Source: an uncultured Nitrospirota bacterium (GTDB lineage Bacteria; CG2-30-53-67). Taken from it: DNA of 64,000 bases. The DNA lies in the NCBI GenBank assembly GCA_945786985.1, contig CALZGC010000039.1, positions 495 to 64,494 of the forward strand. The letters run 5' to 3'. The notes below the pieces were generated by a model, which searched no databases, was not told where the DNA came from, and saw nothing but the letters and a program-made list of their open reading frames with translations. The translations under genes and the position numbers were made by a program. Below are positions 18,961 through 49,980 of this stretch, piece after piece; positions within the stretch are counted from its first letter, which is position 1, and every line of letters begins with the position of its first letter.

Positions 18961-18974
18961 GCCTGCCTCCTGCG

Positions 18975-23951: not shown

Positions 23952-24305
23952 ATGCATTCCGAGAGAAGAAGCTCTCCTCGGGTTCCCGTCTCGGTCACCG
24001 TCACCTACCGGGTGGACGGCCACGAGAGAGAGGGAACCTACCGGGTGGAATCGGTGAATGTAAGCGAGGGCGGTGTTTTCGTTGCCACCGACGTGCCCCT
24101 GGGACTCGGGACGGAGGTACATCTGGAGTTTCACCTTCCGAATCAGAGTGAGTCCATTCAGGCTTCCGGAAGGATCGTCTGGTACGGCCGGGCGGAAACA
24201 GCCGGAGGGGGGATGGTCCTGGGGAAAGGCATTCAGTTCACAGATTGTACGGAGCGGTGCCGTCAGCACCTGGCAACCTATGTGGCTCAATACCAAAGGT
24301 CGTAG
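23952..24305 (+). CDS. PilZ-domain protein (c-di-GMP receptor candidate)
   Basis: RxxxR (RRSSPR) and N/DxSxxG (NVSEGG) PilZ motifs. Starts 4 nt after the kinase stop. Confidence 0.8.
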   Translation: MHSERRSSPRVPVSVTVTYRVDGHEREGTYRVESVNVSEGGVFVATDVPLGLGTEVHLEFHLPNQSESIQASGRIVWYGRAETAGGGMVLGKGIQFTDCTERCRQHLATYVAQYQRS

Positions 24306-27867: not shown

Positions 27868-29238
27868 ATGGCAAAAGCAAGAATTCTTGTGGTGGACGAC
27901 GAAAAACTGATCCGCTGGTCTCTGAAGGAGAATCTGGAGAAGGAGAAATACGAAGTCTACACGGCCAGCACCGGCGAAGAAGCGCTGGAGCTGATCCATG
28001 AGGAATTGCCCGATCTGATTCTCCAGGACATCAAACTCCCCGGAGTCAGCGGCCTTGAGATTCTCGAAGAAGTGAAGAAACTGCGAGAGGAGTCCTTGGT
28101 CATCATGATGACGGCCTACGGGGACATCAACACCTCCGTCAAGGCCATGAAGCTCGGCGCCTACGACTTCGTCGAAAAACCTTTCGTTTTCGACAAATTA
28201 AAGCTCACCATCGCCAAGGCTCTCGAAACGGTCAATCTCAAGAAGGAGGTGCATGTTTTCAAGAGTCAGCAGAAGGCCCAGTTCCGCCTGGACAATGTGG
28301 TGGGCCAGTCAGACTCAATGAACCGCGTTTTCAAAATGGTGGAGAAACTCTCCCGTAGTGACGCCACGACGGTGCTCCTGCAGGGAGAGAGCGGAACGGG
28401 GAAGGATGTCATTGCAAAGGCCATTCATTATCAGAGCCGCCGGGCGGAGGCACCGTACATGGAGATCAACTGCACGTCCCTGCCCGACACGCTCATCGAA
28501 AGTGAGCTTTTCGGGCATGAAAAGGGCGCCTTCACGGACGCGAGAGCCATGAAGAAGGGGCTCTTCGAAATCACCGACGGGGGTACCATTCTCCTGGACG
28601 AAATCGGGGATATGCCCTTGAGCACGCAGTCCAAACTGCTTCGAGTCATCGAAAACAAAGCCTTTAAACGCCTCGGAGGCGTCAAGGATATCGTCGTCGA
28701 TGTAAGAATCATCGCCGCGACGAACAAGGACCTGAAGCAGGCGTCCGCAGGGGGCAGCTTTCGGGAGGATCTCTACTATCGACTGAAAGTATTCCCCATC
28801 TATCTACCTACCCTGCGGGACCGGTCGGAAGACATCCCCCTGCTGGTCCGGCACTTCGTCACTACCTTCAATCATGAATTCAAGAAGAACGTGCGCGGCA
28901 TTTCGCCGGAGGCCCAGGATATGATGATGGCCTACCACTGGCCGGGAAACGTCCGGGAGCTGAAGAATGTCATTGAACGGGCAATAATCCTCGAAAGCGA
29001 AGACGTTATTCTGCCCGAACATCTCCCCCTGGAAGTGGTCCGACCCGAGCCGGTCACGAATCCCCACGGCTCATCCATTCAGCTTCCCGCCGAAGGGGTT
29101 TCGCTGTCGGAAGTGGAGAGAGAGCTGATTGAGCAGGCCTTGGCCACATCGAAAGGCAACCAGGTCCATGCAGCCAAATTGCTTCGCATGAGTCGGGACA
29201 CCCTTCGCTATCGTATGAAGAAACACGATCTGCTCTGA
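27868..29238 (+). CDS. sigma-54-dependent response regulator (NtrC family: REC, AAA+, HTH)
   Basis: REC (VVDDEKLIRW...D at LILQD), Walker A GESGTGKD, GAFTDA sigma-54 contact motif, C-terminal Fis-type HTH. Confidence 0.93.
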   Translation: MAKARILVVDDEKLIRWSLKENLEKEKYEVYTASTGEEALELIHEELPDLILQDIKLPGVSGLEILEEVKKLREESLVIMMTAYGDINTSVKAMKLGAYDFVEKPFVFDKLKLTIAKALETVNLKKEVHVFKSQQKAQFRLDNVVGQSDSMNRVFKMVEKLSRSDATTVLLQGESGTGKDVIAKAIHYQSRRAEAPYMEINCTSLPDTLIESELFGHEKGAFTDARAMKKGLFEITDGGTILLDEIGDMPLSTQSKLLRVIENKAFKRLGGVKDIVVDVRIIAATNKDLKQASAGGSFREDLYYRLKVFPIYLPTLRDRSEDIPLLVRHFVTTFNHEFKKNVRGISPEAQDMMMAYHWPGNVRELKNVIERAIILESEDVILPEHLPLEVVRPEPVTNPHGSSIQLPAEGVSLSEVERELIEQALATSKGNQVHAAKLLRMSRDTLRYRMKKHDLL

Positions 29239-29545: not shown

Positions 29546-29561
29546 TGGTACGGGAATTGCA
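29546..29561 (+). promoter_or_regulatory. sigma-54 (−24/−12) promoter for the regulator–cytochrome operon
   Basis: TGGTACGGGAATTGCA matches the TGGCAC-N5-TTGCW spacing exactly, ~58 nt upstream of ATG 29619. An A/T inverted repeat (TTTTTTCCTTGAAAAAA, ~29462) and direct repeats (GCAAATCCGG...CCAAATCCGG, ~29250–29283) lie further upstream. Confidence 0.6.
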
Positions 29562-29618: not shown

Positions 29619-29996
29619 GTGCATAAAAACATCCTGGTCGTTGATGATGAGAAGCTTGTCCGGTGGACCATCCAGCAATCCATGGGGAAACAGAATGTCC
29701 GAGTGGTCTCCGCTGCAACCGGGGCGGAAGCCATGGAGAAGCTCCGGGAAGAACGTTTTGACATCATCATCACCGACTACGTCATGCCCGGGTTCAATGG
29801 CATTGAAGTGGCTCGCCGGGCCCGCCTGCTTCAGCCGGAGAGCAAGATTATCATGATTACAGCCCACGAAATGATTCTGGACCGGGATGAGGCGGACCGG
29901 GCGGGCGTGAGCAGTATCATCAACAAGCCGTTCATGATCAGTGAGGTCAGAAACATCATCTCGGATCTCCTGTCGGAACAGAGAGACTCTGCATAA
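29619..29996 (+). CDS. single-domain response regulator (CheY-like)
   Basis: VVDDEKLVRW...IIITDYVMPG...phospho-Asp pocket. Its stop overlaps the start of the next gene (TAATG). Confidence 0.88.
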   Translation: MHKNILVVDDEKLVRWTIQQSMGKQNVRVVSAATGAEAMEKLREERFDIIITDYVMPGFNGIEVARRARLLQPESKIIMITAHEMILDRDEADRAGVSSIINKPFMISEVRNIISDLLSEQRDSA

Positions 29997-31348
29997 TGAT
30001 TCCTACGCGTATACTTTGTATCACAGCACTCTTGCTATGTCTTTACACACAACTGACCCTGGCGCCGGTGGAAGGGGCCGACGCGCTACCTCATGCCGGC
30101 CTGGCCGACGCCGCACCGGAGGTCTGCTTCAAATGCCACAAGGATCTTGCCACGCCCCCCGAAGGAGGCGTCGTGCATGCAGCCTTCGGAATGGGAGACT
30201 GTTCCATCTGCCATCTGCTGGGAGCGGACAACCGGTTCCAACTCATAGACACCGGCGCCGGCCTCTGTTACATGTGTCACGATGCGAAAAACACCCAGGC
30301 CAAGGTCCACAGCCCCGTAGCCTCAGGGGACTGCATCTTGTGTCACAATCCGCACCAGTCCCCCAACCCGAAGATGCTCATGGACTATCCGGTGAACAAG
30401 CTTTGCTTCAACTGCCACGATGAAGCGATGGCAAAGCATGCCTACGTCCATGTTCCCGTCTCAGAAGGGGAATGCACGAGCTGCCACGACCCCCATCAAT
30501 CGCCGCACGACAAACAGCTTCGGGAAGAGGGAAACAACCTATGCCTCATGTGTCATGCGGACAAAGAAGAGGATCTGAAGACCAAGAAACACGTGCATGA
30601 GGCCGTCGAAATGGTGGGGTGCACGGGCTGCCACAGTCCGCATGCCTCGGACACCAAATACCAGCTGCTCAGCGCACCCCCTGACCTCTGCTACACCTGC
30701 CACTCCGACAAAGAGGGGCCGGTGAAAACGCCGCACGGCGCCATCGAGATGAAAGGGAGCTGCGTCAACTGTCATGACCCCCATGCCTCCGACCATGAAG
30801 CACAATTAAAGGCTGCGGAAAACAAAGACCTCTGTCTCAAGTGTCACGATCGCAGGCGGAAGACAAAAAGCGGCTATATCCTCAACATGAAGGCCCATCT
30901 GGAAAAGAACCCGGAGCACCACGGGCCCATATTAATGGGAGACTGCGCGTCCTGCCACAACCCGCACGGCTCCGACGAATGGCGGATGCTGAAAAAACCT
31001 TTTCCGGCGGAGTTTTACGTCCCCTTTAAGCTGGAACGCTATGGCCTCTGTTTCGAATGCCATGACGAATCACTGGTTCTGGACGAGAACACGACGGCCA
31101 ACGGGTTCAGAAATGGCGAGATGAACCTGCATTTTGTCCACGTGAGCGATCCCCGTAAGGGTAGACGGTGCGTCGTCTGCCACGACGCCCATGCAGCCCA
31201 AGGACCGAAACATGTTCGGGAGACCGCCAAATTCGGGTCATGGGACCTTCCCATACGCCTCGAACTCCTGGAAGACGGCGGACGCTGTGCCCCCGGATGT
31301 CATCTCCCCCGGGCATACAACCGTAGCAAACCGGTAAAAAACAGGTGA
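29996..31348 (+). CDS. multihaem c-type cytochrome (14 CxxCH plus a C-terminal CxxxCH)
   Basis: Signal peptide. Motifs CFKCH, CSICH, CYMCH, CILCH, CFNCH, CTSCH, CLMCH, CTGCH, CYTCH, CVNCH, CLKCH, CASCH, CFECH, CVVCH, CAPGCH. Recurrent CxxCHxPHxS spacing typical of doubled-CXXCH/c7-type polymers. Confidence 0.9.
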   Translation: MIPTRILCITALLLCLYTQLTLAPVEGADALPHAGLADAAPEVCFKCHKDLATPPEGGVVHAAFGMGDCSICHLLGADNRFQLIDTGAGLCYMCHDAKNTQAKVHSPVASGDCILCHNPHQSPNPKMLMDYPVNKLCFNCHDEAMAKHAYVHVPVSEGECTSCHDPHQSPHDKQLREEGNNLCLMCHADKEEDLKTKKHVHEAVEMVGCTGCHSPHASDTKYQLLSAPPDLCYTCHSDKEGPVKTPHGAIEMKGSCVNCHDPHASDHEAQLKAAENKDLCLKCHDRRRKTKSGYILNMKAHLEKNPEHHGPILMGDCASCHNPHGSDEWRMLKKPFPAEFYVPFKLERYGLCFECHDESLVLDENTTANGFRNGEMNLHFVHVSDPRKGRRCVVCHDAHAAQGPKHVRETAKFGSWDLPIRLELLEDGGRCAPGCHLPRAYNRSKPVKNR

Positions 31349-31519: not shown

Positions 31520-31535
31520 TGGCACAGCTCTTGCT
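31520..31535 (+). promoter_or_regulatory. sigma-54 (−24/−12) promoter for the 4-haem cytochrome gene
   Basis: TGGCACAGCTCTTGCT, a perfect TGGCAC-N5-TTGC. Followed by a ~175-nt leader before ATG 31710. Confidence 0.65.
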
Positions 31536-31709: not shown

Positions 31710-32378
31710 GTGTACATCATGAAAAAAGTATCCGCTATCATCTTTGCCATCATTTTCGCAGCCATGACGGCGGGCGTTGCCGTCGCCGGCCCCGGACCTG
31801 GAACCGGGATTTCGGGATCCAAGCATGACCTCAGCGGCTTGGTCCCCGGAGAGGTCCAGCTCTGCATCTACTGCCATGCGCCCCACAACGGAACCGGAGC
31901 CGCAGGCGGCCTTCTCTGGAATCATTCGCCGTCGGCAGCAACCTACAATATGTATACCGAGGAGGCTGCGAGTGACCCCGCTTTCGCGAACTTCATCAAC
32001 GGCGCGCAGGATGCGGAGCCGACGGGCTCTGCAAAACTCTGCCTGAGCTGTCATGACGGCACGGTGGCCATCGACGCCTACGGTGGCGCTGCAGGGACGG
32101 TCAACATGACCGCCTTTCCCAACGCTAATCTGGGCCTCGACCTGTCGGACGACCACCCCATCTCCATCGTCTACGATGACGCGGCTGATCTCGGTCTGTT
32201 TCCGAAGGCCGCCGTCAACCTGGGTGCGGTGAATCTCACGGACATTCTCGAGAACGACAAAATCAACTGCGTGGCCTGCCACGATGTGCACAACTCTCCC
32301 GGAGAGACTGTGGACGCTCCCTTCGTCAGGGTGACCATGACCGGCAGTGCTCTCTGCCTGAGGTGCCACGACAAATAA
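31710..32378 (+). CDS. tetrahaem c-type cytochrome (doubled-CXXCH-type)
   Basis: Signal peptide. SKHDLS motif, then CIYCH, CLSCH, CVACH, CLRCH. Confidence 0.88.
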   Translation: MYIMKKVSAIIFAIIFAAMTAGVAVAGPGPGTGISGSKHDLSGLVPGEVQLCIYCHAPHNGTGAAGGLLWNHSPSAATYNMYTEEAASDPAFANFINGAQDAEPTGSAKLCLSCHDGTVAIDAYGGAAGTVNMTAFPNANLGLDLSDDHPISIVYDDAADLGLFPKAAVNLGAVNLTDILENDKINCVACHDVHNSPGETVDAPFVRVTMTGSALCLRCHDK

Positions 32379-32409
32379 GCCTTGGCATGATCCTCAACCG
32401 AATGCAGCA

Positions 32410-32442
32410 AAGCCCCTATGAGATTTCATAGGGGCTTTTTTG
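32410..32442 (+). terminator. Rho-independent terminator
   Basis: GCCCCTATGAGATTTCATAGGGGC hairpin followed by TTTTTT. Confidence 0.7.
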
Positions 32443-32715: not shown

Positions 32716-35169
32716 ATGATGGCTTCGTATGCAAGGAACGCCGCGTGCCGACGAATCGTACTCACCAGCCTCCTTGGCTGCTGTATGTCGCTATTCCTGG
32801 GGATAGGCTGTGCCCCTGTGCAGAAGAAACTGGGCACCAGTTTCTACCCGCCGCCGCCGCAGCCGCCCAAGATACAGTTTCTCGCACGCGTCGCTTCATC
32901 CAAGGATGTGGTACCGACGAAGCGATTTCAGAGCTTTGTCATCGGTGAGGAGCCGCCCAACCGCTTCATCAAGCCCTACGGTGTGGAGGCGCAGAACGGC
33001 ATCATCTATGTCTGCGATATGCGGCGCGCCGCCGTCGCAGAGATCGATATCGTCGACCACAAGTTCCAGTGGCTGCGCAACGAAGGCGCCGGAAAACTTC
33101 GAAAGCCGATCAACCTCGCGGTCGACAAGGACGGGACGAAATATGTGGCCGATGTCGCCCTCGGCCAGGTCATGGTTTACGACAAAGCCAATCGCTTCAA
33201 GAAAGCCTTCGGCACGGAAGGTCAGTTCAAGCCGGTGGATGTGGCGGTCTTCGAGGAGAGGCTCTACGTTCTCGATATCCAAGACCATCAAGTGGAGATC
33301 CTGAACAAGAACACCGGCGCCGTTGTAGGAACCATCGGCAGCCCCGCCTTGGAGGAGGGGCAGCTCGCAAAGCCGTCAAACATCTATCTAGACAAGGACG
33401 GCAATATCTATGTCACGAACACGCTGAACTGCCGCATCGAGAAATATGATGATCAAGGCAATCACCTGCTCTCCGTGGGTGAGTGCGGGGATGCGATCGG
33501 CTCTTTCATCCGGCCCAAGGGCGTTGCCGTCGACGACAAAGGTTTCATCTATGTCGTCGATGCGGCCTTTGAAAACGTGCAGATCTTCTCGCCCCAGGGG
33601 GAAACCGCTCTTTTCTTCGGCGGTCCAGGCGATGCCTCTGTCCCGGGAGCGCTCTGGCTCCCGGCCTCCATGGATATTACTTATGACAAGAGTCTGATCG
33701 CCTCCCTGAATGAAGTCCGCAACCCGGATTTTGATATCGAGTATCTGATTCTCGTCATGAGTCAGTTCGGTCCCCCCTACCTGAACATTTATGGATTTGG
33801 TGAACCTCGGGCGGCGTCACCTCTGGCCAGAGGCGACGCGGACGCCTACGAGCCTGAAACGGGCAAGCTCGAATCCGCCTCCGTACCGAGGGAGGTGGTA
33901 CCGGAAGAACCGGTCACACGAGCAACGGAAGAGGAAGCGGCACCCGAAAAGCTGGAGCCGCCCCCAACGGCGCTCGACAAGCCGGAAGTTGCCGCCGTCT
34001 CCAGCCCGTCCGCAGTGGATCAGGCGCCGGCCGTTGAACCGACCCGGCCTCCGGAGCCGAACGAAACAGATAAAGAAGAGAAGGAACTCGTTTCACTGAT
34101 CGAACATTGGAGAAACTGCTGGGATACCCTGGACTTCAATTGTTACATTGATCATTACGGCAGCGAATTCAAACACGGCAAGATGGATCTCGCCGGGTGG
34201 CGAGCTTACAAACGCTCCATTTTCAGGGAAAAGAAGCCCGTCGAGGTACAACTGGAGGACATCCGGATCTCCGGATCGGGGTCGAACCGGCGGGCGCGCT
34301 TCATGCAGACCTTTCGCTCCGGTCGGCTCAGCGACTACGGAGAGAAGGCGCTGACCCTAAGCCGGGAAGGAAACACCTGGAAGATCATCGGAGAAGAGTG
34401 GACAGCCGCCGAAAAAGTCGCGAAGGCGACCGTACCCGAAGCCGGCGATGCAAACCGTTCTGAGATTCTGAGTTTCATCGAGGGGTGGAGAAACTGCTGG
34501 GAAAGCTTGGACTTCAATTGCTACATCGATCATTACGGCAGCGGATTCAAACACGGCAAGATGGATCTCGCCGAGTGGCGAACCCATAAACGCTCCGTTT
34601 TCAAGAAAAAGAAGCGCGTAGAGGTTCAACTGGAGGACATCCGGATCTCCGGATCGGGATCGAACCGGCGGGCGCGCTTCATGCAGACCTTTCGCTCCGG
34701 TCGGCTCAGCGACTACGGAGAGAAGTTACTGACCCTCCGTCGAGAAGGCGACGCTTGGAAGATCATCGCAGAGAAGTGGACAGCCGCGGAAAGAGTCGCG
34801 AAGCCGACCGTACCCGAAGCTGGCGATGCAGACAGTTCTGAGATTCTGAGCTTCATCGAGGGGTGGAAGAACTGCTGGGAGTCTCTTGATTTCGACTGCT
34901 ATATGGAATATTACGGACAGGGCTTTCGGCATCATAAGATGGGCCTGGCTGATTGGAAAGATCACCGGCGCGGCGTCTTCTCCCGACAGAAGAACGTCCG
35001 TCTCACGTTCGAGGACATGGAGATCTCCGGGTTCGGATCAGATCGCAACATCCGTTTCCTGCAGACCTTCCAATCGGGACGATACACCGATTTCGGTGAA
35101 AAAAGATTGACCCTTCGCAAGGAAGGAGAAATCTGGAAGATCATCCGGGAAGAATGGAAGGCCCGGTGA
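32716..35169 (+). CDS. NHL-repeat beta-propeller lipoprotein with a Pro/Glu-rich linker and three tandem copies of an uncharacterised ~126-aa domain
   Basis: Lipobox LFLGIGC. Six YVxD-type NHL blades (IIYVCD, KYVADV, LYVLD, IYVTN, IYVVDA...). Linker. Three repeats: ILSFIEGWRNCWESLDFNCYIDHYGSGFKHGKMDLAEW...SGRLSDYGEK...WKII. Confidence 0.85.
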   Translation: MMASYARNAACRRIVLTSLLGCCMSLFLGIGCAPVQKKLGTSFYPPPPQPPKIQFLARVASSKDVVPTKRFQSFVIGEEPPNRFIKPYGVEAQNGIIYVCDMRRAAVAEIDIVDHKFQWLRNEGAGKLRKPINLAVDKDGTKYVADVALGQVMVYDKANRFKKAFGTEGQFKPVDVAVFEERLYVLDIQDHQVEILNKNTGAVVGTIGSPALEEGQLAKPSNIYLDKDGNIYVTNTLNCRIEKYDDQGNHLLSVGECGDAIGSFIRPKGVAVDDKGFIYVVDAAFENVQIFSPQGETALFFGGPGDASVPGALWLPASMDITYDKSLIASLNEVRNPDFDIEYLILVMSQFGPPYLNIYGFGEPRAASPLARGDADAYEPETGKLESASVPREVVPEEPVTRATEEEAAPEKLEPPPTALDKPEVAAVSSPSAVDQAPAVEPTRPPEPNETDKEEKELVSLIEHWRNCWDTLDFNCYIDHYGSEFKHGKMDLAGWRAYKRSIFREKKPVEVQLEDIRISGSGSNRRARFMQTFRSGRLSDYGEKALTLSREGNTWKIIGEEWTAAEKVAKATVPEAGDANRSEILSFIEGWRNCWESLDFNCYIDHYGSGFKHGKMDLAEWRTHKRSVFKKKKRVEVQLEDIRISGSGSNRRARFMQTFRSGRLSDYGEKLLTLRREGDAWKIIAEKWTAAERVAKPTVPEAGDADSSEILSFIEGWKNCWESLDFDCYMEYYGQGFRHHKMGLADWKDHRRGVFSRQKNVRLTFEDMEISGFGSDRNIRFLQTFQSGRYTDFGEKRLTLRKEGEIWKIIREEWKAR
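34084..35166 (+). repeat. three tandem 378-bp coding repeats (about 98% DNA identity between copies 1 and 2)
   Basis: An approximately 100-bp stretch CTGGAGGACATCCGGATCTCCGGATCGGG(G/A)TCGAACCGGCGGGCGCGCTTCATGCAGACCTTTCGCTCCGGTCGGCTCAGCGACTACGGAGAGAAG recurs at ~34252 and ~34630 with a single internal mismatch (period 378). Confidence 0.9.
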
Positions 35170-35266: not shown

Positions 35267-36349
35267 ATGAACCGTTACACCCGCATGCTGCTCATCGGCA
35301 CAGCCATTCTGGCTGTCACCCTTGGGCAGGCCTGCCAGCAAACGACCAAGCACAAGATCCTCAGCACACTCTTTGATGGGGTGCCCCCTCTGGAGACGGG
35401 CACACAGGAAGAAAGCACCGCGTCCGCGGAAACAGGCGCTGAGAATGCCGATCTCCAAGGGGCGGCGGAAAGAACGTACCGGGCAAGAAGAGCCCAGACC
35501 GCCCGAGCCTCAGGAATGGTCAAACACCCCCCCTATGCGGCGAAGATGTGCGACGGCTGCCACCAGGTGCGTCAAACCGCATCAGTCGCGCCCATGGGTT
35601 TTTCCCTGCGGGCGGAGAAAGACAAACTGTGCAGCCTGTGTCATGAGGACATGTCGCAGGAGGCACTGCAGGGGCGCTACCGGTGGATCCACGGTCCGGT
35701 TCAGTACGGCGCGTGTCTTGAGTGTCATAACCCCCACGAATCCCCCTTTCCCTTCATGCGGAAACAACCGACGGTCCGCAAACTTTGCCTCAATTGCCAC
35801 GACGAAGGGTGGTTCCGGGCTTCCGAGATTCATAGCGGCTTCGACGAAACCGAATGCACAGACTGCCACAACCCTCACGGCAGTCAGTTTCGCTATATGT
35901 TGACTTTCAGCGATGAAGGCACCGTTGAAGCAGCCGCAAAGACCGCTGCGCCTGCCAGCAGGAAACGTGAACAGGTGGCATCTTCTGCTCCGGCTGTGTC
36001 GGAACCCGATCGCGAATCACTCCTCGCCTTCCTGCGGCACTGGGAGCAATGTTGGGAGACCCTAGACCTAGAGTGCTATCTCGGCTTTTACGCACCGGAT
36101 TTCCGCCAAGGTGCCCGGGACCTGGAAGCGTGGAAGGCCTACCGGACGTCCGTCTTTGAAAAGAGCCGAAAAATAGACCTGACACTGGAGCGCATGGATG
36201 TCCAAAGTCTTGGAGAGACCTTTCAGATCACAGCCTTGCAGCGCTATCGGTCCGATCGGCACGAGGATGTGGGTACCAAGAAGCTTCGGGTGCGCCGAGA
36301 GGCAGACAGCTGGCAGATTATGCGGGAGACCTGGACCCCGAACAATTAG
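35267..36349 (+). CDS. pentahaem c-type cytochrome lipoprotein with a C-terminal copy of the same ~115-aa uncharacterised domain
   Basis: Signal/lipobox AVTLGQAC. CDGCH, CSLCH, CLECH, CLNCH, CTDCH. C-terminus LLAFLRHWEQCWETLDLECYLGFYAPDFRQG...WQIMRETW is homologous to the NHL-protein repeats. Confidence 0.88.
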   Translation: MNRYTRMLLIGTAILAVTLGQACQQTTKHKILSTLFDGVPPLETGTQEESTASAETGAENADLQGAAERTYRARRAQTARASGMVKHPPYAAKMCDGCHQVRQTASVAPMGFSLRAEKDKLCSLCHEDMSQEALQGRYRWIHGPVQYGACLECHNPHESPFPFMRKQPTVRKLCLNCHDEGWFRASEIHSGFDETECTDCHNPHGSQFRYMLTFSDEGTVEAAAKTAAPASRKREQVASSAPAVSEPDRESLLAFLRHWEQCWETLDLECYLGFYAPDFRQGARDLEAWKAYRTSVFEKSRKIDLTLERMDVQSLGETFQITALQRYRSDRHEDVGTKKLRVRREADSWQIMRETWTPNN

Positions 36350-36391: not shown

Positions 36392-38434
36392 GTGAAGAGA
36401 AAGACAATAAGACGGATGAAACGTCAAATGGCCGAAGGGCTCCTCGCATGCGTGATGTTCGCATTTTGCGTTCTATCCGCCTATGGTTCCGCCGGTGCCC
36501 AGGAAACGAGTCCCTTCCGCATTACCGGAACCCGAGGGTTTGTCGGCTTCGGATGGGAGCGCGAGGATGAGACACGGCAGGAAAGCCGCGGTCTTGGTGA
36601 CGAAATTGAGGATGTGGACAGCGAGATCTTTGAAGAGATCGGTCTCGGTGTCGACGGATTTGTCTACCATCCGCTGCTCTTAGACTTCCGGGCCGATGTG
36701 GATGCGGTCTTCAAACAGGTCGACTTCAGCACAAACACCAGAGCCATTCCGGACCAGGATGAGAATTATCTCAACTACGACATCTTTGCGAGAATCCTCA
36801 AAGAGCACCGGCTCTCTTTCTGGCTGAGCTCCAACCAGCAGCGCCAGGATATCAACACACCCTTCTTTGACACAAGCCGTATTACCACCACGCAGCACAG
36901 CGCCGGCTTCACCTACCTGCATCCGGTCATTCCGGTCTGGTCCGGCTACTCCCATGAGACCTCCGATGGCGAAGGGAGCGTACAACGGGATGAACAGCGG
37001 GACAAACTCTATGTCGAGGCCAAGAATGAGGGTCCGCTGGGCGACAGCCTGCTCCGGTATGAAAAGGAGGAGCGCGCCGACGATTTCAGCGATGTCGATT
37101 TGAAGATCGACGCCCTGGACTTCACCAACATCTTCCCCTTCGGCGTCGACGACCGCCATGCGCTTCGCAGCCAGTTGCGCTACCAGGACCAGCGGGGCAC
37201 GAGCCCCATTGAAACCACTTTCATCGATGAAAGTCTGGACTTTCGCCACAGCCAGCGGTTGCGAACTTATGCAGGCTTTTCCTATTACGATTCGGATTTC
37301 GATGTTCAGACCACCAACCAGACACGCTACCGCGCCGGCTTGGAGCATCATCTCTACGACAGCCTGGTCACCACCCTGGAAGGGCGCGTCGAGAATTACG
37401 AAATCGATGAAGGCTTCAACGACAGCTACGCAGGAGATCTCGGCCTCAATTACCGGAAAAGGCTGCCCCTCGGTTCGCTGGATCTGCGGTACCGCGGCGT
37501 CATCCGGCGGGAGGACGAAGACTTCTCCGGTAATGTGACCAGCGTTTTCCTCGAGAGTCACACCTTCGGTGAGCTCATTTTCGACGAGATCGTTCTAAAC
37601 CGGGATTTCGCGGTGTCGGACTCCATAGAGCTCGTCGACGCGAGCGGCGTCCCCCTCGTCGATCCCGGCCTCAACCCCGTCACCGAGGGAATCCACTATC
37701 AGATTATAGTCGTGGGAAAGGTGACGCGAATCAGGCTCATTCCGCCGGCGGGCAGCTTTCTTTCCGGTGCGGATGTCTTCGTCAATTACGATTCCGTACC
37801 ACAACCGCCCATCGAGTTTACCTCCTATGAGCAGTTCTACGGGGCCACACTCAATCTCAAAGATATCTGGAGGGTCTACTACGCGGGCGCACGAATCAAC
37901 CAGGTATTGCGAGACGGTGTTGATTTCGGCAACCGGCTGGATGACATCCGGGACCGTACCTATGGCCTTGAAGCCAACTACGGCTTTTCAAGTAGCAAAG
38001 CGGAGAGAAAAGAGCACCACTCCAAAAGGAATCCCTTTGAGACGGACTTCCTTTCCCAGGAGTTTCAAATCCACCTGTGGAACAACGCGGACCTCTTCTT
38101 GACCGGTATTTACTCGGACACGGTCACCTTCGAAGACGTCGATCGCACGATCGATCGCGTTGCCTCGGCGCGGCTCGCCGTCTTTCTTTCGAAGCTTCGG
38201 TGGGCTCAATGGGATATTGAAACGACGTATGCGAACCGCGATCTCATTAATGAAGACCAGGAGAGCGTGAAGCTTCGCACCGAATTTTTCTGGCGGTACA
38301 AACGGATCGATTTCACCGTCACTTACGAGTATTGGAACCTTGACCGGGAAGTATTCGGAGACGAAGACAGCCACTACTTCTTTGTCCGTTTGAGAAGATT
38401 TTTCGGAACACAAGACCGGAGGGCACGGCGATGA
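36392..38434 (+). CDS. large outer-membrane beta-barrel protein (candidate porin of a porin–cytochrome conduit)
   Basis: Signal peptide (LLACVMFAFCVLSAYGSAGAQE). 680 aa of alternating aromatic/polar beta-strand patterns, rich in Y/F/W/D/R, with an aromatic C-terminal region (FTVTYEYWNL...HYFFVRLRRFF). Similar in size to MtrB-class 26-strand barrels. Stop overlaps the next gene's start (ATGA). Confidence 0.55.
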   Translation: MKRKTIRRMKRQMAEGLLACVMFAFCVLSAYGSAGAQETSPFRITGTRGFVGFGWEREDETRQESRGLGDEIEDVDSEIFEEIGLGVDGFVYHPLLLDFRADVDAVFKQVDFSTNTRAIPDQDENYLNYDIFARILKEHRLSFWLSSNQQRQDINTPFFDTSRITTTQHSAGFTYLHPVIPVWSGYSHETSDGEGSVQRDEQRDKLYVEAKNEGPLGDSLLRYEKEERADDFSDVDLKIDALDFTNIFPFGVDDRHALRSQLRYQDQRGTSPIETTFIDESLDFRHSQRLRTYAGFSYYDSDFDVQTTNQTRYRAGLEHHLYDSLVTTLEGRVENYEIDEGFNDSYAGDLGLNYRKRLPLGSLDLRYRGVIRREDEDFSGNVTSVFLESHTFGELIFDEIVLNRDFAVSDSIELVDASGVPLVDPGLNPVTEGIHYQIIVVGKVTRIRLIPPAGSFLSGADVFVNYDSVPQPPIEFTSYEQFYGATLNLKDIWRVYYAGARINQVLRDGVDFGNRLDDIRDRTYGLEANYGFSSSKAERKEHHSKRNPFETDFLSQEFQIHLWNNADLFLTGIYSDTVTFEDVDRTIDRVASARLAVFLSKLRWAQWDIETTYANRDLINEDQESVKLRTEFFWRYKRIDFTVTYEYWNLDREVFGDEDSHYFFVRLRRFFGTQDRRARR

Positions 38435-39618
38435 CGGCAGAGGACCAGATCACGACGCATAGAGTTCCAAGCGGAAACCGGATCGGATTGACGGTGCTGC
38501 TCACGCTTTCCCTGACTGCCTGCGCCGGCCAGGTGCAGATGCCAACCGAACCGACTCCGCCGGCACCGTTGACTCGCGTGTGGCCGGCACCGCCGGAGCG
38601 GCCCCGAATCACGCTGGTCCGGGAGATTCAGCTTCCGAGAGATATCCGGCAAAAACCGAGCGCCTGGCGGAAGATCGTGGAGTTCATCGCCGGGAAGGAA
38701 CCGCAGCCGACCTTGGTCCGCCCATACGGCGTCACTGTAGATCCTGGCGAACGCCTTCTGGTCGCCGACACCGGAGCCCAGCGTGTCCATATCTTTGATC
38801 TGAATTCAGGACTGTACGAGAAGCTTCCTCACCCCAAGGACGATCTGCGCCTCCTCTCACCCATTGATGTACAGGTGGACGGTTCCGGCCGCATCTATGT
38901 TTCCGACTCGGAGGCCCGCAAAGTCCACATCTTCAATGCCGAGGGGAGGCTGGAGAAAAGCCTGGCAGGTTTTGAACGTCCCACCGGACTGGCCGTCAAC
39001 AAAAGCCTGGGGCAGCTCTTGGTGGTCGACACCAAAGCGCAACAGATTCATGTTTTCAGCACCGCCGGCGAGCGCCTCTTCTCCTTCGGACGCCGCGGGG
39101 GAGGCAACGGAGAGTTCAATTTCCCGACGAACATCTGTCTCGATCGCCGGGGAAACATCTATATAACCGATTCGATGAATTTTCGTGTACAGGTCTTCGA
39201 TCCGAAAGGAAACTTCTTGAGTCGTTTCGGCAAGGCCGGCGACGGACCCGGACGGTTCTCAAAACCGCGAGGCATAGCCGTCGACAGCGACGGGCACATA
39301 TACGTCTCCGACGCGTCCTTCGACAACATCCAGATCTTCAACATCCAGGGGCAGATCCTGCTCTATTTCGGAGCCCCCGGCGTCTCGCCGGGAGAGTTCT
39401 ATATGCCCGCGGGAATCACCATCGATGCAAGCAACCGGATCTTCGTCGCGGACTCCTACAACCACCGAATCCAGGTCTTTCAGTATCTCAAGCCAGACCT
39501 GGAATCGGAAAAGAGCAGCTCCGGATCGAAAAGATCGTCCGAAGATCAGACAGCGCCGTCTCTCAGGTCCAATACACAACTTGACGTTTCCGCTCGAACG
39601 GGTTGGATCGGGCGGTAG
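38431..39618 (+). CDS. NHL-repeat beta-propeller lipoprotein
   Basis: Lipobox LSLTAC. Six NHL blades (LLVADTG, IYVSDSE, LLVVDTK, IYITDSMNFRVQVF, IYVSDASFDNIQIF, IFVADSYNHRIQVF). Confidence 0.88.
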   Translation: MTAEDQITTHRVPSGNRIGLTVLLTLSLTACAGQVQMPTEPTPPAPLTRVWPAPPERPRITLVREIQLPRDIRQKPSAWRKIVEFIAGKEPQPTLVRPYGVTVDPGERLLVADTGAQRVHIFDLNSGLYEKLPHPKDDLRLLSPIDVQVDGSGRIYVSDSEARKVHIFNAEGRLEKSLAGFERPTGLAVNKSLGQLLVVDTKAQQIHVFSTAGERLFSFGRRGGGNGEFNFPTNICLDRRGNIYITDSMNFRVQVFDPKGNFLSRFGKAGDGPGRFSKPRGIAVDSDGHIYVSDASFDNIQIFNIQGQILLYFGAPGVSPGEFYMPAGITIDASNRIFVADSYNHRIQVFQYLKPDLESEKSSSGSKRSSEDQTAPSLRSNTQLDVSARTGWIGR

Positions 39619-39656: not shown

Positions 39657-41402
39657 ATGAAAAGGCTCACAGAAAGAAAGAGCGGAGGCAATCCCTTCAA
39701 TAGACGCTTCCTTTGCGTCGCGGCCCTTGTGCTGCTTGCCTTTGCCAGCAGCGCCGCGGCCCTCATGAGCGTCGTGGACTCCAAACACAATCTCTCCATC
39801 AGCGGTCCCGGCACCATGAAAGCCACGGCGGAATCGGAGATCTGCATTTTCTGCCATACCCCTCACGGCGCGGAGCCGGGGGGTGTTCTCTGGAACCGTG
39901 CGGACCCCGCAGGCCCCTACCAGACTTACGACAGTACCACCATACAGACCTTTGTCGGCCAGCCGACGAAAGCCTCCCGGAAGTGCCTGAGTTGTCATGA
40001 CGGCACCATCGCGCTCGGGCAGGTCTCCAGCCGGCCCGCACAAATACCGATGAGCCAGCAGTTTCTCAACACCGGTCCCGCATTCCTGGACACCGATCTG
40101 AGGGACGATCATCCCATTTCACTCAACTACGGCAGTGCCCCGACGCCCGAGTACAAGAATCCGGCCACCCTGACAGGCCCCGTGAAGCTCGACAAAGACG
40201 ATGATCTGCAGTGTACGGCGTGCCACGATCCGCACGATGATACGTTGGGCGATTTTCTGACCGACACCACCTTCCAATCCGCTCTCTGCCTGAACTGCCA
40301 CCAGCCGACGGGCTGGACCACTGGCACGCACCGAAACTCCGCGGCTGGCTGGAACGGCAGCCCTCCGGACCCATGGCCCCATACAGACTACACGTCGGTG
40401 GCGGAGAACGCCTGCGAAAACTGCCATCGCCCCCACAGTGCGGGACGGGATCCACACATTCTCAACGAATTCCTCGAAGAGGACAACTGCTACCCCTGCC
40501 ACAACGGCAACCTGGTGGGGGCCATCAATAATTTCGACATCCAGAGCGAATTCGTCAAACCCTCGAATCATCCCATCGGCAGCACCGTGGGCACCCACGA
40601 GCCGACCGAGGACTATCTGACCATGGCGCGCCACGTGGAATGCGCCGACTGTCACAACCCCCATCAGGCCAATGACACCCCGGCCAACGCCCCCCTGGTC
40701 AGCGGCGCGTTGCTGGGTGTCAAGGGGGTCGATGCCGCAGGCGGCGTAGTCGACCCGTCGATCAACGAATACGAGATCTGCTTCAACTGCCACGCCGACA
40801 GCGCCCCGGGGCCGATCCCTATACCGCGCCAGATTCCCGAAGTGAACAAGCGACAACAGTTTGCCCTGAGCAATCCGTCCTATCACCCCGTGGAGGGGCC
40901 CGGCAAGAATGCCAACGTCCCGAGCCTCGCCGGCATGACACTCAACGGCGTACCTCTCACCACCGGCACCGTGATCTACTGCACCGACTGCCACAACAAC
41001 AACAACGGCCCCGGCGCCGGCGGCGGCGGCCCCAATGGCCCCCACGGCTCGACCTATGACTACCTGCTGGAAAGGCGCAATGAGACGGCCGACTTCACCC
41101 CCGAGAGTTCCACGAACTACGCCCTCTGCTACAAGTGCCATAACCGGAACAGTATCCTGAACGACGACAGTTTCGATGAGCACGACAAGCACATCCGTGG
41201 CGAAGATGCTCCCTGTTCGGTCTGTCACGACCCCCACGGCGTCGACGGCACCGCCTCGAACAATACGCATTTGATCAACTTCGACACCTCTGTCGTCTTC
41301 CCCAGCGGTGGACAGCTATGGTTTCGAGACGACGGAGTTTTTGGGGGAACATGCCGCCTCGTCTGCCATGGCGAGGATCACAATCCGTTCAACTACCCAT
41401 AA
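39657..41402 (+). CDS. multihaem c-type cytochrome (11 CxxCH plus a C-terminal CxxxCH)
   Basis: Signal peptide. SKHNLS motif. CIFCH, CLSCH, CTACH, CLNCH, CENCH, CYPCH, CADCH, CFNCH, CTDCH, CYKCH, CSVCH, CRLVCH. Confidence 0.9.
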   Translation: MKRLTERKSGGNPFNRRFLCVAALVLLAFASSAAALMSVVDSKHNLSISGPGTMKATAESEICIFCHTPHGAEPGGVLWNRADPAGPYQTYDSTTIQTFVGQPTKASRKCLSCHDGTIALGQVSSRPAQIPMSQQFLNTGPAFLDTDLRDDHPISLNYGSAPTPEYKNPATLTGPVKLDKDDDLQCTACHDPHDDTLGDFLTDTTFQSALCLNCHQPTGWTTGTHRNSAAGWNGSPPDPWPHTDYTSVAENACENCHRPHSAGRDPHILNEFLEEDNCYPCHNGNLVGAINNFDIQSEFVKPSNHPIGSTVGTHEPTEDYLTMARHVECADCHNPHQANDTPANAPLVSGALLGVKGVDAAGGVVDPSINEYEICFNCHADSAPGPIPIPRQIPEVNKRQQFALSNPSYHPVEGPGKNANVPSLAGMTLNGVPLTTGTVIYCTDCHNNNNGPGAGGGGPNGPHGSTYDYLLERRNETADFTPESSTNYALCYKCHNRNSILNDDSFDEHDKHIRGEDAPCSVCHDPHGVDGTASNNTHLINFDTSVVFPSGGQLWFRDDGVFGGTCRLVCHGEDHNPFNYP

Positions 41403-41415
41403 GCGAGGTTCGGCT

Positions 41416-42387
41416 TTGAAAAACCTTTTTCTATTGCTCTTTTTCGGACTGATCGTTGCGTCGGGCGCCGGTGCATCCGATCTCTCCGCCAAGGCTGTGA
41501 TGGCCACGGTCAACGGCGTTGCCATCACACGCAGCCTGGTCGAGGCCGAGGTGCGCCGCCTGGTCCCGAGGACCCTTTTTCACCAGAGCATCGATGCCGA
41601 GAAACTCGCCGCCTTTCGCAAGGACGCGCTCGAGAGCCTGATTGACAAGGAACTCCGGGTCCAGGAGGCAGCGCGTCTCGGACTCACGGTCGACAAGCGT
41701 GCCGTTGGGACGGAACTCAAGAAGGTGATCGAACGCTATTCGAACAAGAGGGAATTCGAAAAGCGACTCAAAGCGGCGGGCTATTCCACCCGGGATGCCA
41801 AAGAGGAAATTGAAAGACGGCTGCTGGCCGATCTCGTTTTTCAACGGGAAGTCGTCGCGCGCGTCAAGGTCAGCGACCAGGAGGCCCGAAGCTATTATGA
41901 AGCCAATCAGGAGAAGTTCGTGGAGCCTCGCCGCTTCAACCTGAGCCACATCCTGGTGAAAGTGCCTCCCCTGGCGAACGATTTCGAAGAAAAAGCGCTG
42001 GAGAAGAAGACCAAGGAGATCGCCAGACAAATCCGGGCAGGACTCACCTTTGACGAGGCCGTGCGCAAGTACGCGGAAGGAGACGACCAGGACGACGGCG
42101 GTGACATGGGCTGGGTTCACGAGGGGCGGCTCGTGCCGGAAATCGAGCAGGAAATCGCCAAATTGACGCCCGGTGAGATTGCCGGCCCCTTCCGAACCTT
42201 TCGGGGCTTCAGGATCTTCCGCGTGGACGAAGTCCGCACCGAGAGACAGGTCCCCTTCCCTGAGATCCGGGACAAGCTCCTGGCCGACCTCACCGAGAAA
42301 GCCATTCAGGAAAGAGAAACCGTCTGGAAGGCAGGACTAAGAGAGAAGGCTGAAATCGTTCGCCACGAACTTCCGGCCGGAAACTAG
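41416..42387 (+). CDS. SurA/PrsA-like peptidyl-prolyl cis-trans isomerase (SurA N-domain plus one PpiC/parvulin domain)
   Basis: TTG start 7 nt after a GAGGT RBS, giving signal peptide LKNLFLLLFFGLIVASGAGA. Parvulin motif FNLSHILVKV...GGDMGWV. Confidence 0.8.
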   Translation: MKNLFLLLFFGLIVASGAGASDLSAKAVMATVNGVAITRSLVEAEVRRLVPRTLFHQSIDAEKLAAFRKDALESLIDKELRVQEAARLGLTVDKRAVGTELKKVIERYSNKREFEKRLKAAGYSTRDAKEEIERRLLADLVFQREVVARVKVSDQEARSYYEANQEKFVEPRRFNLSHILVKVPPLANDFEEKALEKKTKEIARQIRAGLTFDEAVRKYAEGDDQDDGGDMGWVHEGRLVPEIEQEIAKLTPGEIAGPFRTFRGFRIFRVDEVRTERQVPFPEIRDKLLADLTEKAIQERETVWKAGLREKAEIVRHELPAGN

Positions 42388-42438: not shown

Positions 42439-42477
42439 CTCGTAATAGATTGACTCATGCAATAGACGGGCTAGTAC
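42439..42477. repeat. MITE-like element, copy C (solo terminal inverted repeat, opposite orientation)
   Basis: CGTAATAGATTGACTCATGCAATAGACGGGCTAGTAC is the reverse-complement of the ATTGCATGAGTNAATCTATTACG terminus (22/23) and matches the flanking CCCGG-CTAG motif of copy B's 3' end. Confidence 0.5.
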
Positions 42478-43001
42478 TTGTCTGTATGGCAGGCAATGCA
42501 AAGCTCCGTGGAGGAGTGCCCCACGGTCAGTTCCCTCGAGGCGGTGCACTCTGCAGCGGGATCCAGCGCCATGGCCGCCGTCTGCATCCCGGTCGACAGA
42601 TCACTCTTAAGTCTGTGACAGGAAACGCAGCTCACCTTCCCATCAACCAGACGGATATTCTTGTCCAGCAGCAGCCTCGGCCGATACCCCCTTGGGTCCC
42701 GCATGGCATAGTGATCATAGGACATGCCCACCGGATGATTGACCGTCCGGGATCCGCTTATCTGGAAAGGGGCGTCGGCATCTTTCAATGAGATACTTGT
42801 TGCTGTGGCCCCATTGTGGCATCCCAGGCAGTCACTCGCCGTACTGTCAGGAGGTACTGCAGCCGCACTGACGGCGAAGGCTTGCACATCGGCACCGAAC
42901 ACGAAGTTCCTGAACATCTCAGAGAGGCTTCCCGCCACCGCTGTGCGCGGTGCAACACAAATCAGAGAAAAGACCATCAGGAGTGTACAAAACCTCTGCA
43001 T
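42471..43001 (-). CDS. trihaem c-type cytochrome
   Basis: Signal peptide MQRFCTLLMVFSLICVAPRTAVAG. CLGCH, CVSCH, CIACH. Confidence 0.8.
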   Translation of the reverse strand: MQRFCTLLMVFSLICVAPRTAVAGSLSEMFRNFVFGADVQAFAVSAAAVPPDSTASDCLGCHNGATATSISLKDADAPFQISGSRTVNHPVGMSYDHYAMRDPRGYRPRLLLDKNIRLVDGKVSCVSCHRLKSDLSTGMQTAAMALDPAAECTASRELTVGHSSTELCIACHTDKY

Positions 43002-43490
43002 AGCCAACCCTCCTCCTGTCATGCCCGAGGGGCAATTACCACACGGTATCGGTTCTAAAAGAATGGATTGAAAAAGAGGATGGGCCGCCGACGTCAGAGA
43101 GCCTGCCTGAAGACCCATACGTTCATCCGTCTCTTCGGCAGCCCCTCTACCATCACCTTGCGGCCCCAGGCAGGTGGCTTTGCGTCCGATCCCTTTCGGG
43201 AAAGGTTGCCTTTGTCACAAAACTAATCAGTACATCGGGAGAAAGGCAAAATACTTTAGAATAAACTGGTTCCCCCGATGGGTCTGGCCGGCTTGCGAAC
43301 GTATTCGGTGGCAAACCTGACCTCTCCACGAAGCCTTTCTAATGTTCTTACCACTGAATCCTTTGGCCCGCAACCGATGGGCGGACAAGATCTGCACCAT
43401 GGCGTCCGGCATGGCCGCCGACCTTTTCGCACGGGCCAGTGTGGGAAAAACATTGTGTTTCTATCATAACCTAAGAACTTGTTTATGCGG

Positions 43491-49891: not shown

Positions 49892-49980
49892 GGCCCCTCC
49901 AGAGATTAAGATGATGTGATGAATGCCTCGTATCCTCATATTTTCGAGCCGTTTCAGAAGCCAAACAAGCCAAAAAATAC

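Follow-up and report, generated by a model that had tools for sequence, protein, structure and literature searches.

The window, the whole stretch of 64,000 nucleotides that was analysed, contains on its + strand a cluster of multihaem cytochrome genes, in the midst of which a gene for an outer-membrane beta-barrel is directly followed by a gene for an NHL propeller lipoprotein. The features of the cluster are listed below.

24073..25986, + strand: periplasmic-binding-protein-like gene upstream of the two-component system (longest-ORF start, probably over-extended)
26005..27780, + strand: sensor histidine kinase with HAMP, PAS and HisKA domains
27868..29238, + strand: sigma-54-dependent response regulator (enhancer-binding protein) with Response_reg, Sigma54_activat and HTH_8 domains
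29546..29561, + strand: sigma-54 -24/-12-like site, TGGTAC-N5-TTGCA, with one mismatch, about 60 nt 5ʹ of the receiver gene
29619..29996, + strand: stand-alone receiver-domain gene, 125 aa, abutting the 14-haem gene (annotation of locus L001 mapped to the window)
29996..31348, + strand: multihaem cytochrome of periplasmic type with 14 CXXCH motifs, homologous to a 370-aa cytochrome of the G. sulfurreducens omcE cluster
31520..31535, + strand: sigma-54 promoter with a perfect consensus (TGGCAC-N5-TTGCT), 184 nt 5ʹ of the OmcE-like gene
31719..32378, + strand: OmcE-like tetrahaem cytochrome, 219 aa, candidate polymerising surface subunit (phmmer and alignment)
32409..32441, + strand: intrinsic terminator with a 13-bp G+C-rich stem, a 4-nt loop and U6, directly 3ʹ of the OmcE-like gene
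32716..35169, + strand: NHL-U, NHL propeller lipoprotein of the upstream class with three tandem Cds6_C/NTF2-like domains (Pfam, lipobox)
35267..36349, + strand: 5-haem cytochrome (5 CXXCH) with the lipobox LGQAC and one Cds6_C domain (Pfam)
36392..38434, + strand: outer-membrane beta-barrel gene, 668-680 aa depending on the start (probable start 36416)
38431..39618, + strand: NHL-D, six-blade NHL propeller lipoprotein of the downstream class, 395 aa (Pfam NHL, lipobox)
39657..41402, + strand: undecahaem cytochrome with 11 CXXCH motifs and one CX3CH (motif count, 7tfs_A match)
41416..42387, + strand: SurA-like peptidyl-prolyl isomerase of periplasmic chaperone type, with Rotamase and SurA_N domains

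Both the barrel and the NHL-D reading frames were found on the + strand where the earlier note had placed them, with the barrel stop codon (TGA, 38432-38434) and the NHL-D start codon (ATG, 38431-38433) sharing the letters ATGA. A GGAGG lies 8 nt upstream of the NHL-D ATG, and the NHL-D start is identical in the public annotation of a MAG contig (GCA_947259695.1) that matches the window and encodes an identical barrel protein. Three codons were candidates for the start of the barrel, namely GTG 36392 (680 aa), ATG 36416 (672 aa) and ATG 36428 (668 aa). The second (MKRQMAEG...) is the equivalent of the start in P0002, a barrel homologue with 87% identity, and the third is the start in the public annotation; the true start is uncertain. 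The overlap was present in the 87% relative L002, and the two genes were separated by 21 nt in L003 and by 59 nt in L004. Overlaps of 4 nt are common inside operons, and as this one is not conserved beyond the closest relative, we rejected it as a defining trait of the pair.

The reading of ORF 36392-38434 as an outer-membrane beta-barrel held. DSSP assigned 17 + 11 long strands and, flanking an insert, two short ones, giving 28 or 30 in all, and the barrel is thus predicted to have 28 strands, possibly 30. The insert of about 80 residues (about 393-470) is beta-rich and conserved, and is home to the best-conserved motifs of the family. The earlier note had also put the barrel at the size of the 26-strand MtrB-class porins. 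The window barrel had no Pfam match up to E=1, the MtrB_PioB Pfam domain was absent from all 49 barrel relatives checked, and nothing was found among PDB sequences at E<=10, even with a profile as the query. Given the lack of a sequence signal and a count of 28-30 strands rather than 26, membership of the MtrB/PioB family was rejected.

NHL-D matched the Pfam NHL family (PF01436) at E=5.6e-46 with 5 repeats and the TRIM71 NHL domain at E=2e-65, and its LSLTAC/AGQ fits a lipobox, in agreement with the earlier description of the partner as an NHL propeller lipoprotein. There are in fact two distinct NHL partners, one on either side of the barrel, the second of which had been missed. This upstream protein, NHL-U, matched NHL at E=2.9e-11 and Cds6_C at E=8.8e-62 in 3 stretches, and carries the lipobox FLGIGC. 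Lipobox calls rest on inspection and on agreement with the PS51257 pattern. The best matches of NHL-U were the upstream NHLs of other loci, and in every locus the upstream and downstream NHLs formed distinct paralogue classes, both of which have a lipobox and a Pro-rich motif.

Cytochromes, accessory genes and regulatory sites

CXXCH counts of 14, 4, 5 and 11 for the + strand genes bore out the earlier view that the barrel and NHL-D lie in a multihaem-cytochrome locus. Judged by its sequence, the small 4-haem gene upstream of the barrel, which the earlier note overlooked, encodes an OmcE homologue: full-length phmmer comparison with the solved OmcE filaments gave E=4e-21 (9yuq_N) and E=2.8e-18 (7tfs_A), and comparison with G. 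sulfurreducens OmcE gave E=3e-25. When aligned with both solved OmcE proteins, all four CXXCH motifs together with K35/H36, H56, H146 and H191 were invariant. All eight OmcE haem ligands were conserved in the tetrahaem cytochrome and likewise, in the alignment, at the N-terminus of the undecahaem cytochrome. Residues 23-216 of the latter correspond to an OmcE-like tetrahaem module (matching 7tfs_A at E=2e-25 across residues 41-234 in the long ORF), and the rest carries seven further haems.

The 14-haem cytochrome shared 37% identity over 319 aa with the 370-aa cytochrome of locus L085 (E=6e-63), and its match to the DmsE family was below the cutoff. The 5-haem gene between NHL-U and the barrel was found only in L001-L003, the subclade of the window, and was missing from the other 81 loci. 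The SurA-like gene adjoins the barrel in L002 and L089 too and lies outside the proteobacterial core. The L003 equivalent of the periplasmic-binding-protein-like gene has PBP_like_2 and Phosphonate-bd domains.

As for regulation, the sensor histidine kinase gene lies 5ʹ of the cluster in L002 and L003 as well, and the response regulator is conserved in L002, L003 and L089. A site similar to that preceding the receiver gene was found 5ʹ of its equivalent in L003, and the exact consensus at 31520..31535 had an equally placed counterpart in both L002 and the distant L003. Over the whole window there were 4 sigma-54 sites against 2.1 expected, which is not above chance, and the sites draw their weight only from their positions and their conservation in L002 and L003. 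The terminator fragment had a minimum free energy of -47.1 kcal/mol (z = -3.0), and since it stands right after the OmcE-like gene, that gene forms a transcription unit of its own. Its own sigma-54 promoter and strong terminator are as expected for an abundant structural subunit.

The barrel family and its conserved neighbourhood

A word-indexed protein search with the barrel as the query returned 6 relatives and a 49-sequence profile returned 5, while exhaustive HMMER searching exposed a large family of 2,062 representative clusters. The family is without a Pfam or NCBIfam entry or a solved relative. Searches started from OmcE independently led to barrels of this family as well, one in a Gemmatimonadaceae MAG (E=6e-33) and another in a Syntrophales MAG (E=1e-18). 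Its hosts include sulfur oxidisers, denitrifiers and iron reducers, and among the cultured ones are Rhodoferax ferrireducens and Aromatoleum species, such as A. toluvorans and A. tolulyticum. For synteny, 80 loci were taken with a majority-clade alignment, because of which Proteobacteria are over-represented among them; Tenderia is not among the 80. Altogether 84 loci were compared, and their hosts were Beta- and Gammaproteobacteria, a single Rokubacteriota MAG and members of the window's clade.

The gene order common to the 84 loci was OmcE-like tetrahaem, NHL-U, barrel, NHL-D and undecahaem. An NHL gene lay 3ʹ of the barrel in 80 of 81 untruncated loci and 5ʹ of it in 77 of 80, and the 4-haem OmcE-like gene was the second gene upstream in 71/75. 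The second position downstream was occupied by an 11-haem gene in 66 of 76 loci and by a gene with an OmcE-like domain in 74 of 76. The earlier note would have given up its reading had transmembrane strands not been predicted or had the NHL partner been absent from orthologous loci; neither was the case, the partner being conserved. The adjacency of barrel and NHL genes is far beyond chance, and the two proteins are genuine partners and fixed parts of a widespread module.

Possible function of the module

The analysis established which genes the locus holds, their homologies and synteny, the fold of the barrel and the regulatory motifs. The barrel and the NHL lipoprotein are probably components of the outer-membrane module in an extracellular cytochrome ('nanowire') system of the OmcE type. 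For the occupant of the barrel, the face on which the propellers sit and the formation of a filament, we infer the following arrangement. The barrel of 28-30 strands would be the passage, or trans-membrane socket, through the outer membrane, and the undecahaem cytochrome may lie inside it as a haem wire, like MtrA in MtrB, with its OmcE-like domain displayed at the surface. Tetrahaem subunits could then dock on this domain or polymerise from there. The two propeller lipoproteins would be anchored in the outer membrane beside the barrel, where they may hold or assemble the complex as scaffold or assembly factors. To this the lineage of the window would add the 5-haem lipoprotein cytochrome and the SurA-like prolyl isomerase, and transcription would proceed via sigma-54 and the adjacent two-component system.

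Within this arrangement we tentatively suggest, as a possibility that is rather less than probable, that the undecahaem cytochrome, in which an OmcE-like module is fused to a seven-haem rod, is the missing base of the nanowire: the rod would thread the 28-strand barrel and be held by the propeller lipoproteins, and the tetrahaem polymer would be nucleated or capped by the head. If so, the module would be a complete socket from the periplasm to the extracellular filament, and the undecahaem, with its presence in 74 of 76 loci, would be a candidate of the initiator or tip type, which Desulfuromonadia omcE operons are reported not to encode (bioRxiv 10.1101/2025.10.22.684050). Speaking against an OmcE-type nanowire system are the differences in barrel sequence and gene order from the Geobacter omcE clusters that are described below. 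Moreover, opinions differ on the physiological role of cytochrome filaments, and the title of one paper reports a lack of physiological evidence for a conduit function (PMC11077965).

It is conceivable, though we consider it unlikely, that the barrel is a secretion or usher-type pore only, which would export folded OmcE-like subunits and anchor the polymer, with the propellers and the prolyl isomerase as chaperone or morphology factors, electrons travelling via a separate conduit and no cytochrome in the barrel. The conserved, beta-rich insert of the barrel recalls the plug domain of PapC/FimD, a porin-mounted, chaperone-usher-like model is favoured for OmcE and OmcS (bioRxiv 10.1101/2025.10.22.684050), and OscE, OscF and OscG are proposed to serve OmcS secretion and OscH its folding (PMC13194489). 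However, pure export leaves unexplained why the undecahaem cytochrome with its OmcE-like domain is as constant beside the barrel as the NHL genes, and the prolyl isomerase is missing from most loci. We give still less credence to an ordinary conduit of the MtrAB/Pcc type without a filament, in which the barrel would sheathe a multihaem cytochrome, both the tetrahaem and the 5-haem lipoprotein would be monomeric surface reductases, and the NHLs would only stabilise.

Such a conduit would suit the at least 34 CXXCH sites of the locus, which include a lipoprotein cytochrome directly 5ʹ of the barrel, the sub-threshold similarity of the 14-haem cytochrome to the DmsE/MtrA family, and the proposal of Deng et al. 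that, in D. ferrophilus, outer-membrane cytochrome complexes are stabilised by NHL propellers. Yet the tetrahaem retains every haem ligand of the filament-forming OmcE and constitutes a separate promoter-terminator unit, and no kinship by sequence was found between the barrel and MtrB/PioB or any Pfam barrel family. Pairs of a barrel and a lipoprotein are also frequent in nutrient uptake and envelope biogenesis (SusCD, LptDE, BamAB-like), but that the present pair is of this kind and merely sits amid cytochrome genes is very improbable, as the barrel has no TonB box, plug or Pfam match and its linkage to the OmcE-like and undecahaem genes is near-invariant across phyla.

One of the questions still open in Geobacter research is how nanowires cross the outer membrane, attach to it and connect with the periplasm. 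Taken as part of an OmcE-type nanowire system, the module described here is tractable, with a rigid gene order, five core parts only and some cultured hosts, and its OmcE-headed undecahaem offers a concrete hypothesis for the junction between filament and membrane. For annotation, several genes called 'hypothetical protein' become a recognisable marker set for extracellular electron transfer.

Comparison with described cytochrome systems

The module showed no sequence similarity to MtrCAB of Shewanella (6R2Q) or to the Pcc/Ext conduits of Geobacter; its barrel is predicted to have 28-30 strands compared with 26 in MtrCAB, and propeller lipoproteins are foreign to Mtr/Pcc. The osc cluster and the window, likened here by description, both combine a nanowire cytochrome with companions, which in the window are the barrel, the SurA-like prolyl isomerase and the NHL proteins; the osc subunit is the hexahaem OmcS, not OmcE. 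OscEFG are reportedly channel-like, OscH is said to contain a prolyl isomerase and OscD to be beta-propeller-like. Roles of the osc genes in folding, secretion and morphology are reported in PMC13194489, which cites Shen et al. 2025 (Cell Chem Biol).

Closer in parts is the Uet system of Ca. Tenderia electrophaga and Gallionella, with the tetrahaem UetA, the prolyl isomerase UetB, the predicted 28-strand barrel UetC, the NHL proteins UetH and UetI, and the undecahaem UetJ (bioRxiv 10.1101/2022.05.06.490989; PMC10734462), and the Occ cluster of Ca. Dechloromonas occultata likewise contains NHL proteins and an undecahaem, OccP, of 922 aa (bioRxiv 10.1101/695007). Compared by parts list alone, Uet and the window both have a tetrahaem, a prolyl isomerase, a barrel, two NHL proteins and an undecahaem. 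Several c7-type trihaem cytochromes, three of them in Uet, are found in Uet and Occ, and Uet has a cupredoxin, none of which was found in the + strand cluster of the window, and their gene order differs from that of the window. The earlier note did not recognise barrel-NHL pairs from described conduits, a view contradicted by UetC with UetH/UetI, by the osc cluster of OmcS with its reported channel-like and folding factors, and by the omcE clusters (bioRxiv 10.1101/2025.10.22.684050).

The same preprint gives as the minimal omcE cluster a large barrel accompanied by two propeller lipoproteins and two multihaem cytochromes. The omcE clusters of G. sulfurreducens and Desulfuromonas soudanensis WTL (7TFS, 9YUQ) have the same parts as the window, namely an OmcE-type tetrahaem, a pair of propeller lipoproteins, a large barrel that carries no Pfam annotation, and two multihaem cytochromes, here the 14-haem and 11-haem proteins, with the 5-haem as an extra. 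NHL-D and the NHL protein encoded in the G. sulfurreducens omcE cluster were 36% identical over 317 aa (E=1.3e-63). In contrast, the barrel-family HMM had no match at E<=10 to the omcE barrels of Geobacter and Desulfuromonadia, and hhalign against these barrels of about 750 aa gave a probability of 3-4%, over the last strands only; by sequence, the barrel of about 670 aa here belongs to a different or undetectably diverged family. The order OmcE-NHL-barrel-NHL-undecahaem of the window also differs from cyt-cyt-NHL-OmcE-barrel in G. sulfurreducens and from (NHL-)cyt-NHL-OmcE-barrel in the Desulfuromonadia-like loci L087 and L088. Unlike the omcE cluster, the module of the window has no block of glycosylation genes, whereas the Cds6_C NTF2-like domains and the 5-haem lipoprotein are additions of the window's lineage, and an undecahaem with an OmcE-like N-terminal domain is present in the window module and not in the Geobacter cluster. 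Since the preprint lists these parts, the omcE-type locus was already known, and the module of the window is an additional case of it.

The barrel–propeller gene pair and its cluster

The barrel and NHL genes belong to a + strand cluster with the following order:

Genes 1–4, +: binding-protein-like gene; histidine kinase; sigma-54 enhancer-binding response regulator; receiver-domain gene
Gene 5, +: 14-CXXCH cytochrome
Gene 6, 31719-32378, +: 4-CXXCH, OmcE-like cytochrome (tetrahaem)
Gene 7, +: NHL lipoprotein upstream of the barrel (NHL-U), with three Cds6_C/NTF2-like domains
Gene 8, +: 5-CXXCH lipoprotein cytochrome with one Cds6_C/NTF2-like domain
Gene 9, 36392-38434, +: barrel
Gene 10, 38431-39618, +: NHL lipoprotein downstream of the barrel (NHL-D)
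Gene 11, 39657-41402, +: 11-CXXCH cytochrome (undecahaem)
Gene 12, +: SurA-like prolyl isomerase

This arrangement was repeated in L002, an 87% relative, and, with variations, in the distant metagenomic relatives L003 and L004.

The overlapping gene pair described in the earlier note was confirmed: the barrel TGA and the NHL ATG share ATGA at 38431-38434, and GGAGG lies 8 nt 5ʹ of the NHL ATG. An identical barrel protein is encoded by the public MAG contig CAMYNS010000010.1 (GCA_947259695.1), whose annotation has the same NHL start and places the barrel start at 36428. In the 87%-identical homologue the start corresponds to ATG 36416, which yields a normal charged signal-peptide N-region. Given these alternative starts, the barrel is 668-680 aa long. 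The undecahaem and prolyl isomerase of GCA_947259695.1 differ slightly from those of the window. Since the 4-nt overlap was kept only in the closest relative, with gaps of 21 nt in L003 and 59 nt in L004, it is a local detail and not a defining trait of the pair.

The C-terminus of NHL-U is encoded by three tandem DNA repeats (34099-35154, 378-nt spacing) corresponding to its three Cds6_C/NTF2-like domains, the later copies sharing 88% and 62% identity with the first one; a fourth domain of this kind forms the end of the 5-haem cytochrome (36020-36340), and in L003 the domain is carried by the downstream NHL protein instead. Divergent genes at 43553-45688 (-) and 47123-50038 (-) encode proteins in which repeated MopE-like Cu-binding motifs are joined to cytochrome regions of 10 and 12 CXXCH; next to them is a 3-CXXCH protein that weakly resembles OmcE (42471-43118, -). 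Upstream, 15424-20348 (-) holds a corrinoid reductive activase of the RACo type together with two MoeA-like molybdopterin genes, one of which includes a fused PBP-like domain; this content suggests an anaerobe.

A large barrel family and its two propeller partners

A word-indexed protein search returned six barrel relatives, and an exhaustive HMMER search returned 2,062 representative clusters at E<=1e-3, of which 788 also passed E<=1e-30. With few exceptions the proteins measured 640-700 aa. One representative, P0148 (934 aa), carries the barrel region at 304-921, preceded by roughly 300 extra N-terminal residues. AlphaFold2 modeled the barrel with a pLDDT of 72.5 from six sequences and of 90.0 (pTM 0.73) from 49. 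In the model, DSSP assigned 17 long strands to residues 40-378, then a short strand, a beta-rich insert (~393-470) and a second short strand, and 11 long strands to residues 471-672. The predicted barrel would thus have 28 strands, rising to 30 should the short pair cross the membrane as well, the even count following from the need for both termini to face the periplasm. The best-conserved family motifs sit in the insert, and the C-terminal consensus, LRRxF, fits an outer-membrane beta-signal. The barrel had no match in Pfam or NCBIfam, 49 family members gave no consistent Pfam match save three weak generic OMP_b-brl hits, and no sequence relative was found in the PDB, profile search included. 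With these results and the predicted strand number, the proposed assignment to the MtrB class was not upheld.

To define the neighborhood, we scanned a single genome of each species with a majority-clade barrel alignment, which returned 80 loci. The hosts were Rhodocyclaceae, Aromatoleum, Rhodoferax ferrireducens, Thiobacillus, Sulfuritalea, Ca. Thiodiazotropha, Sedimenticola, Woeseiaceae, Thiohalomonadaceae, Arenicellales and one Rokubacteriota MAG.

Table. Neighbors of the barrel gene, from ORF and feature analysis of the 80 scanned loci plus L001-L004 (the GCA_947259695.1 contig and the three relatives)
Directly downstream: NHL, 80/81 untruncated loci
Directly upstream: NHL, 77/80; the three exceptions have the window arrangement, in which the 5-haem gene intervenes
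Second upstream: OmcE-like 4-haem cytochrome, 71/75
Second downstream: 11-haem cytochrome, 66/76
Second downstream: cytochrome with OmcE-like domain, 74/76

The NHL partner, whose absence from orthologous loci would have refuted the earlier reading, was clearly present in them. In every locus NHL-U and NHL-D formed two separate paralogue classes, each with a Pro-rich motif behind its lipobox (FYPxxPxxPRIQ upstream, VWPxxPxxxRI downstream), and the barrel has two dedicated propeller partners.

OmcE-like cytochromes and transcription units

The tetrahaem protein (219 aa) matched solved OmcE structures over its full length (D. soudanensis bundle 9YUQ, E=4e-21; G. sulfurreducens filament 7TFS, E=2.8e-18), with four CXXCH motifs and four further histidines invariant. 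The N-terminal 200 residues of the undecahaem were equally OmcE-like (7TFS, E=2e-25) and kept the same ligands, and the remainder weakly resembled MtrA/DmsE-type cytochromes and the 370-aa cytochrome of the G. sulfurreducens omcE cluster. The undecahaem is a fusion of an OmcE-like tetrahaem module with seven further haems, a form also encoded at a further locus, L090 (5221-7254), and in most of the 80 scanned loci.

An exact sigma-54 -24/-12 promoter motif (31520-31535) lies upstream of the OmcE-like gene and is conserved in L002 and L003, and a motif with one mismatch (29546-29561) lies upstream of the receiver gene; sites of this type lie at 5119 in L002 and at 6779 and 4727 in L003, and conservation extends to relatives only ~41% identical at the barrel level. 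The kinase and sigma-54 enhancer-binding regulator genes lie just upstream of these motifs. The window also contains rpoN (11054-12490, -). Directly 3ʹ of the OmcE-like gene is a strong intrinsic terminator (32409-32441; 13-bp stem, U6), which a consensus terminator scan missed and which makes this gene monocistronic. Such a separate unit suits an abundant structural subunit, and the three lipoproteins, barrel, secreted undecahaem and periplasmic chaperone are probably co-transcribed.

Possible role of the barrel and comparison with known omcE clusters

From anatomy and analogy, the barrel may act as a trans-outer-membrane socket, most likely occupied by the undecahaem, since this is the sole cytochrome that always accompanies it. 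The OmcE-like head would then form the junction to tetrahaem subunits, and the two propellers might be anchored in the outer membrane as scaffold or assembly factors. In the main rival model the barrel holds no cytochrome and is an usher-like pore for export and anchoring; the barrel of omcE clusters has been described as 'putatively functioning as a secretion or anchor' (bioRxiv 10.1101/2025.10.22.684050), and the constant presence of the undecahaem argues for the occupied socket. A further possibility is a plain conduit of the Mtr-like sort that has no filament. Of the original reading, the cytochrome-conduit barrel and its conserved propeller partner stood, and the MtrB class and the lack of precedent did not.

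Barrel–NHL association is already documented, in omcE and Uet clusters. Besides OmcE and a large beta-barrel, the smallest omcE clusters always hold two beta-propeller lipoproteins and two multihaem cytochromes, such OmcE homologues span five phyla, mainly Thermodesulfobacteriota and Pseudomonadota, and none of the omcE operons studied encodes an initiator or tip candidate (bioRxiv 10.1101/2025.10.22.684050). In Uet of Ca. Tenderia, a tetrahaem and an undecahaem are accompanied by a prolyl isomerase, two NHL proteins and a barrel predicted to have 28 strands, and some Gallionella genomes also carry Uet genes (bioRxiv 10.1101/2022.05.06.490989; PMC10734462). The Occ cluster combines NHL proteins with an undecahaem (bioRxiv 10.1101/695007), and for OmcS the osc cluster reportedly provides factors for folding (OscH), secretion (OscEFG) and morphology (OscD) (PMC13194489). 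NHL proteins also lie next to outer-surface cytochromes in D. ferrophilus, G. metallireducens, G. sulfurreducens (GSU2505) and Geoalkalibacter.

We compared the window with the G. sulfurreducens omcE locus (purHDE, ppcB, resB, ccsB, 9-haem and 8-haem cytochromes, an NHL gene, omcE, a 752-aa protein without Pfam annotation, and glycosyltransferases) and two Desulfuromonadia-like loci. NHL-D resembled the Geobacter NHL protein (36% identity, E=1e-63), and the 14-haem cytochrome the 9-haem protein (37%, E=6e-63), whereas the barrels had no detectable relation: the family HMM did not match, and hhalign gave a probability of 3-4% over the final strands only. Window-type barrels did occur in two loci found independently from OmcE. 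One, in a Gemmatimonadaceae MAG (E=6e-33), additionally encodes an undecahaem with an OmcE-like head, and the other is in a Syntrophales MAG (E=1e-18). This indicates that two barrel families serve OmcE-like loci. The Syntrophales locus carries three tandem OmcE-like tetrahaem paralogues (L089, 8156-10497); genes for a kinase, a sigma-54 regulator and an NHL protein lie before them, and those for a SurA-like isomerase and the barrel after. The locus in the window is of the already known OmcE-type cluster kind, with a large uncharacterised barrel family, and its most interesting lead is the OmcE-headed undecahaem, which is not in the Geobacter omcE cluster but is nearly universal beside the window barrel family.
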